In this document: piece after piece, positions 52,344 through 53,174 of the stretch
Layout: each line of letters begins with the position of its first letter
Numbering within the stretch: position 1 is the stretch's first letter
DNA from: Enterobacteria phage GEC-3S
Length of the DNA stretch: 64,000 bases
Sequence record: HE978309
Strand: one strand, 5' to 3'
Notes under the pieces: model-generated
Told to the model about the DNA's origin: nothing
The model's database searches: none
The model's input: only the letters and a program-made list of their open reading frames with translations
Program-made: the position numbers and the translations under genes

Positions 52344-52679
52344 TTATCCTTTCTTAAACAAATTGCGAATCCAGTATACAAACGGGATTTCTTTAAACTT
52401 GAATTTCTCTATAGTTAATTCTTTAGTAGCAAGATGAATACCATAAGCATCATGTGTCACGATATGCCATTTTCTATAGTCCAAATGTGAACAACCGTCT
52501 GGATCTAGGTTAATAAGAGTTTCTCGCTCACTAGGATTGTTTTTCCACAATTTTGTAATAGGATCGCACATAATTCGACCTAGCGTACCATGAATAATCT
52601 CACAACGGTAAAGTTTTCCAGCAGTGAGATAGGCGCACCCGTCATAGTCGGTATAAACAAACACTTCTTTAACACTCAT
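52344..52679 (-). CDS. paralog family D protein (111 aa)
   Basis: leader AAGGAGTATTAAAATG; shared motif GCSHLDYRKW. Confidence 0.5.
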   Translation of the reverse strand: MSVKEVFVYTDYDGCAYLTAGKLYRCEIIHGTLGRIMCDPITKLWKNNPSERETLINLDPDGCSHLDYRKWHIVTHDAYGIHLATKELTIEKFKFKEIPFVYWIRNLFKKG

Positions 52680-52707
52680 TTTAATACTCCTTTGTTTCGA
52701 TGGGGGT

Positions 52708-52737
52708 ATATTACTACCCCCCGTTTTGTTGTGTCAA
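52708..52737 (-). promoter_or_regulatory. early promoter (TTGACA-N18-TAATAT) inside GGGGGTA/TACCCCC palindrome
   Basis: minus-strand read. Confidence 0.45.
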
Positions 52738-52983
52738 CTACTTTTTCAAGATTTTTTTAATTGCGTTCCAAAGACCTTTATTCTCAGGTTGTTTTGGTTC
52801 TTCGATCAGTGTCCATGTTCGACCGTCTAAGTGTGCACAATTTTTAAGACAAATAAAAATCTGGTGTCCCTTATCATCACGGATATAACCACTATTCGCA
52901 AATCTTTCATGTGGTGTATATTCATACAGTGTATTTGGTGTAATATACTTGCGGTTACTATAAGGTGTCATTACATATTTCAT
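52738..52983 (-). CDS. paralog family D protein (81 aa)
   Basis: start at ATG 52983; motif NCAHLDGRTW. Confidence 0.45.
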   Translation of the reverse strand: MKYVMTPYSNRKYITPNTLYEYTPHERFANSGYIRDDKGHQIFICLKNCAHLDGRTWTLIEEPKQPENKGLWNAIKKILKK

Positions 52984-53174
52984 GGTACTAACTCCCATTT
53001 ATCACCGCGAAGATGAGAACATCCACCATCAAGAAGGATCGTAATACGAAACCCCGCATCATCTTCAATATACCCGATAGTCGGTGGATGTTCGTCGTCT
53101 CGTGCCGGGGTAAAATCATACATCTTTCCCGGTGTGATATCATTGCCTTTATTGCTATTGGTATAAACTTGCAT
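52980..53174 (-). CDS. paralog family D protein (64 aa)
   Basis: SD AGGAGA; motif GCSHLRGDKW. Confidence 0.5.
   Translation of the reverse strand: MQVYTNSNKGNDITPGKMYDFTPARDDEHPPTIGYIEDDAGFRITILLDGGCSHLRGDKWELVP

Follow-up and report, generated by a model that had tools for sequence, protein, structure and literature searches.

Three tandem paralogs with a predicted SH3-like fold beside a PeSL-type element and regB in Krischvirus phages

Introduction

In phages Phi1 and RB49, PeSLs (promoter-early stem-loops) have been shown to possess both promoter and terminator activity and to mediate the shuffling of orphan ORFs; their published anatomy comprises an AT-rich tract, a consensus -35 box and a polyG/polyC stem-loop lying on the -10 box, within regions of small orphan ORFs (Arbiol et al. 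2010, PMC2839356). Another point of reference is Gp54 of phage Bas11 (PDB 9AXB), a nonessential barrel of 66 aa, of unknown function, which acts as a trigger of CapRel (CapRel-SJ46) (PMC11578894).

Here, we analyze a locus of Enterobacteria phage GEC-3S in which a PeSL-type element lies within an array of three small genes, each encoding a predicted barrel. The window, that is, the whole stretch of DNA analyzed, spans 64,000 nt of sequence record HE978309. An earlier note, made from the sequence of this DNA alone, had drawn attention to three consecutive small proteins encoded next to regB that share a short Cys/His-containing motif.

Results

A tandem array between nrdC.11 and regB

The segment at 51900-53900, which contains the array, shares 99.3% identity with Escherichia phage Phi1 and 98.8% with RB49, and matches 57 records, all of them from the genus Krischvirus (T4-type myoviruses). 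In Phi1, the minus-strand gene order, as annotated and with the neighbors confirmed by Pfam, is vs.6, nrdC.11, ORF097, ORF096, ORF095, regB, vs.1, vs and tk.4. The trio corresponds to ORF095, ORF096 and ORF097 of Phi1 and to ORF095c, ORF096c and ORF097c of RB49, which are annotated as hypothetical. Upstream of the array lies nrdC.11 (53196..53894, minus strand), encoding a nucleotidyltransferase of the RlaP family (PF10127, E 3.4e-14, and annotation), and downstream lies regB (51917..52339, minus strand; PF10715, E 1.6e-48, and Phi1 annotation), the neighbor already named in the earlier note.

Farther out, vs.6, encoding a GrcA-like stand-alone glycyl-radical protein (53981-54397), and tk.4, encoding a macro-domain protein (50402-50857), were recognized as annotated in the relatives but fall outside the finding reported here; rI and rI.-1 lie a few kilobases from the trio according to the Phi1 annotation. 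Related contigs carry HNH/NUMOD4 homing-endonuclease genes (L033, 2515-3042; L034, 1907-2434 and 3459-4052; L035, 3674-4270), which are inserted either between vs.6 and nrdC.11 or farther upstream, between a Peptidase_M15_4 gene and the gene for a 163-aa protein preceding vs.6; the window is free of them. At the position of the trio, T4 has vs.3, vs.4 and vs.5, which were tested as homologs and rejected, being unrelated helical proteins, and no family member was detected when 117 kb of the T4 sequence were scanned with a profile. In GenBank, homologs of the 111-aa protein from phages Skers, JK32 and 011D4 (L013, L014 and L017), as well as G2248, are labeled "(putative) endoribonuclease / RegB"; as the sequences of ORF095 and RegB are not similar, we treat this label as a carry-over error of annotation. 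A literature search with the locus tags of the trio, the PHROG identifiers and Krischvirus transcriptomes found nothing, and an Rfam search of the region gave no meaningful match.

The three genes are paralogous and under coding constraint

The earlier note described the trio as tandem small paralogs, and this description was borne out: three minus-strand ORFs occupy exactly the 52344-53174 interval, and the similarity of their products exceeds chance both in BLASTP and against phrog_6261, an independently built profile. The 81- and 64-aa proteins share 43% identity across 51 residues (E 8e-12), and the 111-aa protein matches the 64-aa protein with E 6e-5 and the 81-aa protein with E 2e-3. All three are recognized by phrog_6261, with E values of 1.1e-37 (111 aa, over residues 3-76), 9.2e-6 (81 aa) and 1.8e-29 (64 aa), and the 81-aa protein is additionally recognized by phrog_15978 (E 2.1e-60). 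The motif strings GCSHLDYRKW, NCAHLDGRTW and GCSHLRGDKW are present as quoted in the note, and its "Tyr-rich N-terminal half" is, more exactly, a Y-[IL]-T-x-G-K-x-Y segment common to the three proteins. No fourth copy was found in the 64-kb window with either a profile of the trio or a 120-sequence family profile.

The 64-aa paralog (ORF097; 52980..53174, minus strand) is a bare domain, acidic (pI 4.6, net charge -5), the gene for which starts 21 nt past the nrdC.11 stop and has a Shine-Dalgarno sequence that includes GGAG at 53184-53187. In the 81-aa paralog (ORF096; 52738..52983, minus strand), which is basic (pI 9.45), the core domain is followed by the linker EEPKQPENKG and a C-terminal helix; the start codon of this gene overlaps the ORF097 stop as ATGA, with GGGAG located 8 nt upstream of the ATG. 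An alternative, 86-aa reading of ORF096 from 52998 is less likely, since the phrog_15978 alignment begins at residue 6 of that reading, which supports the 81-aa start. The 111-aa paralog (ORF095; 52344..52679, minus strand; pI 8.3) combines the core barrel with an enlarged beta3-beta4 (distal) loop, an extra beta-hairpin and a 35-residue C-terminal extension, and its stop codon lies 4 nt ahead of the regB ATG.

All three genes are hypothetical in annotation, and ORF097 is broken in one phage, so we considered whether these might be spurious or decaying ORFs kept merely for their position between real genes. When the trio locus was taken from 13 further Krischvirus genomes, Nei-Gojobori dN/dS values over 13-14 genomes were 0.10 for the 111-aa, 0.23 for the 81-aa and 0.20 for the 64-aa gene, indicating that these are real coding genes. 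The proper ribosome-binding sites, the translational coupling and a confident fold prediction argue the same way, and the dN/dS values together with 370 related clusters across metagenomes (see below) effectively refute this explanation, to which we assign next to no probability. All three genes are covered at 100% in each of the 57 Krischvirus records. In phage FL04, a small deletion (L018, 983-1108) reduces ORF097 to a 41-aa stub in an otherwise complete genome; thus, ORF097 at least is dispensable.

A phage domain family with a shared signature

An exhaustive HMMER search based on a profile of 9 sequences (cut-off E<=1e-3) retrieved 370 cluster representatives of a domain of ~60 residues, mostly acidic and stand-alone, compared with only 18 close relatives in a word-indexed search. 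Within about 60 residues, the family signature reads Y-[IL]-T-x-G-K-x-Y ... I-x-D-D-x-G ... [CS]-[AS]-H-[LI]-x(3-4)-W, and the three window proteins align over the entire domain, with E values of 9e-28, 5e-24 and 7e-18 against the 120-sequence family profile; ORF095 does not have the D-D-x-G turn and carries the enlarged loop in its place. Most relatives are stand-alone proteins of 58-75 aa with the N terminus M-K-V-K-T-D-Y, a few contain two to four domains per chain (P0021, P0027 and P0029), and some have an unrelated C-terminal region. In the 117 relatives from outside the window (ORF097 numbering), Y19 and W60 are conserved in 100%, T14 and K17 in 96%, and I36, D39 and H54 in 92%, whereas C52 is found in 87% (Ser in 12%), L55 in 85%, and the His is replaced by Tyr, Phe or Trp in about 8%.

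The earlier statement that the function of these proteins was not known holds in the sense that a characterized homolog is absent from every library searched: neither the three proteins nor the 120 relatives gave a meaningful match to Pfam, NCBIfam, PADLOC or PDB sequences. PHROG and public records already hold the trio and the family; function, fold and mutual paralogy are absent there. Distant members reside in runs of small hypothetical genes, including a nin-like prophage region in a betaproteobacterial MAG, small-gene clusters on environmental phage contigs, and a Klebsiella Jedunavirus; a search of bacterial genomes yielded one prophage in one MAG, and a profile scan of viral contigs 9 loci only.

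Examination of the fusion partners of 20 multi-domain relatives yielded no informative domain. In seven relatives (P0058, P0071, P0134, P0138, P0140, P0144 and P0106), the barrel is fused to a recurrent uncharacterized C-terminal region (phrog_13152 / phrog_15048 / phrog_18768) with the pattern W-G-E-M-T-D-A-E-K-G-A-L-L-L-A-x-H-E-G-K-x-I-E ... Y-R-I-K-P. None of the PADLOC or Tad2-like anti-defense models was matched by the trio above threshold; the fused partner domain of one distant relative, P0107, gave a Tad2-like match of 20.4 bits (E 7.8e-4), short of the cut-off of 25. On an unrelated 87.5-kb metagenomic phage contig (L006), four family genes are found, at 5853-6101 and 8001-8680; the latter interval contains three consecutive family genes with overlapping starts and stops, paralleling the Krischvirus array independently.

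The position of the trio between nrdC.11 and regB raises the alternative that these proteins are RNA- or nucleic acid-binding accessory factors that act with RegB, a GGAG-specific endoribonuclease, and/or nrdC.11, the SH3/KOW/Sm-like barrel together with a basic tail gripping RNA. Several observations make this rather improbable. The family is mostly acidic, with a median pI of 4.7 and 74% of the members below 5.5, and ORF097 itself is negatively charged, with a net charge of -5; RegB and RlaP genes do not adjoin family members in other phages; ORF095 shows no resemblance to RegB in sequence; and T4 RegB functions without such genes at this locus.

The domain is predicted to be an SH3-like beta-barrel

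The earlier note proposed a small conserved fold, in agreement with the AlphaFold2 models, in which the 64-aa protein and the core of the 111-aa protein are confidently predicted as compact, all-beta domains, and with the retention of the motif across the 370 cluster representatives. For ORF097, a shallow alignment gave a model with pLDDT 92 and pTM 0.78, in which strands span residues 2-4, about 18-22, 33-37, 43-47 and 61-63, and residues 53-55 (A/S-H-L) form a 3-10 helix. The antiparallel strands follow the SH3 order, the 3-10 helix precedes the last strand, and the model superimposes on SH3 domains; the predicted topology is thus that of a five-stranded SH3-like beta-barrel. In the model of ORF095, residues 5-83 are confident, 86-100 form a low-confidence linker, and 101-109 a helix.

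The relationship to described SH3-like folds is limited to the predicted structure. Sequence identity of the trio to SH3, Tudor, KOW and bacterial SH3b domains is 4-14%, the ligand-binding ALYDY, WW and PxxY motifs are missing, and the trio proteins, in contrast to these domains, are stand-alone cytoplasmic phage products. None of the SH3, SH3b, Tudor and KOW models of Pfam matched the trio at E<=1, and among the 120 relatives there was a single such match, to Tudor_5 (E 9.5e-4). Foldseek comparison with the PDB returned nothing below E 0.4, and that with predicted viral structures retrieved uncharacterized phage proteins only.

A probable binding module rather than a catalytic Cys/His site

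The C-[AS]-H-L string is the most striking motif of the family, with the Cys and His kept in most relatives, and could be read as a metal site or a Cys-x-His catalytic dyad, which would make the trio tiny enzymes or zinc-binding proteins. The pattern of conservation argues against this reading, because there is a single conserved Cys and a single conserved His, the Cys gives way to Ser and the His to aromatic residues at the frequencies given above, and a natural CAYL allele of ORF096 is under purifying selection. Beyond the Asp-Asp of the beta-turn, there is no further conserved ligand, so that the family does not possess an invariant set of metal ligands or catalytic residues, and the searches turned up no match to a peptidase, hydrolase or zinc finger, at the level of either family or fold. 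We consider a metal-binding or catalytic role very improbable.

Mapped onto the model, T-x-G-K would form the turn before strand 2 and D-D-x-G the beta3-beta4 turn, and the [CS]-[AS]-H-L 3-10 helix would correspond in position to the 3-10 helix through which SH3 domains contact their ligands. Taken with the existence of multi-domain relatives, this mapping suggests a binding module, and binding rather than catalysis is the likely activity of the family. The barrel would then act in a stoichiometric manner, through the binding of a macromolecule of the host or the phage.

Two paralogs carry cationic amphipathic tails

The 81-aa protein ends in a predicted cationic amphipathic helix, GLWNAIKKILKK (52741..52776, minus strand), with a hydrophobic moment (muH) of 0.78 and a net charge of +4, and the 111-aa protein in an aromatic and cationic amphipathic segment, PFVYWIRNLFKKG (52347..52385, minus strand), with a muH of 0.67, a net charge of +3 and the predicted helix at residues 101-109. 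Both segments are terminal and positively charged, and each has the highest hydrophobic moment of its protein. Comparable tails are present in the unrelated family members P0092, P0028 and P0131, and the last gene of the three-gene run on contig L006 likewise ends in a cationic amphipathic tail, SLFDKLKCYLKKLFKVLG. In being short, C-terminal, cationic, aromatic and of high hydrophobic moment, the two window tails resemble the membrane-targeting helices of MinD and FtsA, an analogy for which no homology is claimed. It is conceivable, at somewhat less than even chances, that the tails anchor the binding domain at an anionic surface, be it the inner membrane or some other.

An alternative to this proposal would have the tailed paralogs act at the inner membrane, in superinfection exclusion, lysis timing or the modulation of a membrane-associated host system, with the barrel as a mere scaffold. 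The top-ranking hydrophobic moments, the likeness to the FtsA and MinD helices, the independent recurrence of tails within the family and the location of the locus a few kilobases from rI and rI.-1 fit this alternative, but signal peptides and transmembrane segments are both absent, most members, including ORF097, are tail-less, the tails are short and, in ORF095, modeled with low confidence, and their features would suit nucleic acid or acidic-protein binding equally well. We regard it as improbable.

A PeSL-type element at the border of two putative units

A promoter and hairpin scan of the 58-nt spacer ahead of the 111-aa gene (52680..52737, minus strand) revealed an AT-rich upstream tract, a -35 box TTGACA (52732-52737) and a -10 box TAATAT (52708-52713) separated by N18, a stem-loop at 52702-52721 with a 7-bp GGGGGTA/TACCCCC stem that overlaps the -10 box, and then the Shine-Dalgarno sequence GGAG (52687-52690) of the 111-aa gene. 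The RNA fold of the element has a predicted energy of -15.2 kcal/mol (z -2.8), and it is labeled a terminator in one GenBank record. In the AT-rich tract, the consensus -35 box, the polyG/polyC stem-loop on the -10 box and the setting among small orphan ORFs, the element shares the anatomy published for PeSLs (PMC2839356) and can be classed as one of them, with a putative early promoter of the sigma-70 type. ORF095-097 and regB are not mentioned in that work. Similar elements, in which TTGACA and a G-run/C-run stem-loop precede a GGAG-type ribosome-binding site and an ATG, are found on the minus strand of the window at 60565-60599, 58765-58787, 43376-43398 and 2798-2832, the first being nearly identical to the one ahead of the 111-aa gene.

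Upstream of nrdC.11, a terminator-like hairpin (53947-53971) is accompanied by a weak promoter-like site. Given the 21-nt gap and the ATGA overlap, nrdC.11 and the 64- and 81-aa genes would form one tightly packed, apparently cotranscribed unit, and the PeSL would head a second unit consisting of the 111-aa gene and regB. The annotations of T4 and RB49 give GGAG as the recognition sequence of RegB; as this tetranucleotide is part of the ribosome-binding sites of both ORF097 and ORF095, shut-off by RegB is plausible. Under such control, RegB would switch off the 64- and 111-aa genes past the early period. The trio belongs to the dispensable, hyperplastic and probably early part of the Krischvirus genome. 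Early expression of the trio under RegB control is, in our judgment, somewhat better supported than not.

An ancient array diversified by recombination

The earlier note viewed the trio as undergoing local duplication. Duplication stands as the origin of the array, but not as an ongoing process: the array is old, with the same trio in 57 of 57 Krischvirus records and its order kept in divergent metagenomic relatives, which retain the arrangement RlaP-64aa-80aa-100/103aa-RegB. Variation within the genus takes other forms. ORF096 exists as two deep alleles, one in L009-L017 and the other in L001 and L018-L020, which differ by a dS of about 0.8 and about 28 amino acids, including CAHL versus CAYL, whereas the flanking genes are about 95% identical, which suggests that the alleles were exchanged by recombination.

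A further replacement is apparent when the window is compared with the related contig L033. Identity is about 90% in nrdC.11, 75-90% in ORF097, 60-80% in ORF096 and 87% in the PeSL, but drops to 30-55% in the core of ORF095, to return to 85-95% in the final 20 codons of that gene and in regB. The core found in L033 nevertheless belongs to the family (E 5e-9); hence, one family member took the place of another, and of the two junctions, one coincides with the PeSL and the second falls within the gene. The conserved order and the swapped ORF095 core together indicate that the array is ancient and was diversified by recombination, through allele and cassette replacement, rather than by ongoing duplication.

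The last ~20 codons of ORF095 (52347-52405 in the window versus 5540-5610 in L032 and L033) are identical or nearly so at the DNA level, including synonymous sites, and the remaining gene body cannot be aligned. We examined this conservation as potential proof of selection on the tail peptide and rejected it, because the synonymous sites are identical as well; the stretch may mark a recombination junction or serve in the control of regB. In some phages, the ORF095 stop is moved by one codon, which places AAGGAG immediately before regB. In another contig, an 83-aa protein (P0005; L040, 45-296) combines an N-terminal half from ORF097 with a C-terminal half from allele B of ORF096, the two meeting in the GYIKDD segment that both possess; it is located 44 nt away from the contig end and represents either unequal recombination or an assembly artifact, and was left out of the evidence.

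Discussion

On balance, we favor the reading that three SH3-like paralogs have diverged within a tandem array of ancient origin; they would be noncatalytic binding modules encoded by early accessory genes. The three copies have probably been subfunctionalized, the 64-aa protein keeping to the untailed, acidic form usual in the family and the 81- and 111-aa proteins being basic and tailed. A role in host takeover or anti-defense is possible but doubtful. More speculative still is the broader proposal of a large, unnamed, phage-specific domain family of early host-interaction factors, serving as inhibitors or decoys of host defense or housekeeping proteins and diversified in an arms race into arrays, chains and swapped cores, with tails delivering the domain to the membrane; we put it forward tentatively, as a proposal that is unlikely to hold in full.

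For specialists in T4-like phages, paralogous orphan ORFs in a hyperplastic region will come as no surprise, and no long-standing question is opened by them. If confirmed, the results would nevertheless give a family of at least 370 clusters, blank in every curated library, its name and fold along with a hypothesis that can be tested, and a single phage that encodes the bare domain beside two tailed versions constitutes a compact natural experiment. The present analysis contributes the identity of the phage and its genes, the proof of coding, the breadth of the family, the SH3-like fold, the argument against catalysis, the tailed subtypes, the PeSL context and the mosaic history. The trio can thus be regarded as better-described representatives of the small orphan accessory proteins of T4-type hyperplastic regions, the function of which we infer.

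Gp54 of Bas11, likewise a small phage barrel protein, was rejected as a member of the family: 9AXB was not matched by the family profile at E<=10 in a search of PDB sequences, and bas11_0054 reached only E 1.3 in a search of 257 ORFs. Gp54 is a six-stranded barrel and does not carry the T-x-G-K-x-Y, D-D-x-G and C-A-H-L...W motifs of the family. Since the family profile fails to recognize it, Gp54 is a fold analog only. Two other Bas11 ORFs gave partial matches, limited to the N-terminal half.

The locus also has a parallel in the PeSL-mediated shuffling described in Phi1 and RB49 (PMC2839356). Compared with the cassettes described there, the segment exchanged between the window and L033 is bordered by a PeSL on one side only, and what was exchanged is one member of a gene family for another; the locus thereby adds a concrete case of PeSL-bounded cassette replacement within a gene family.
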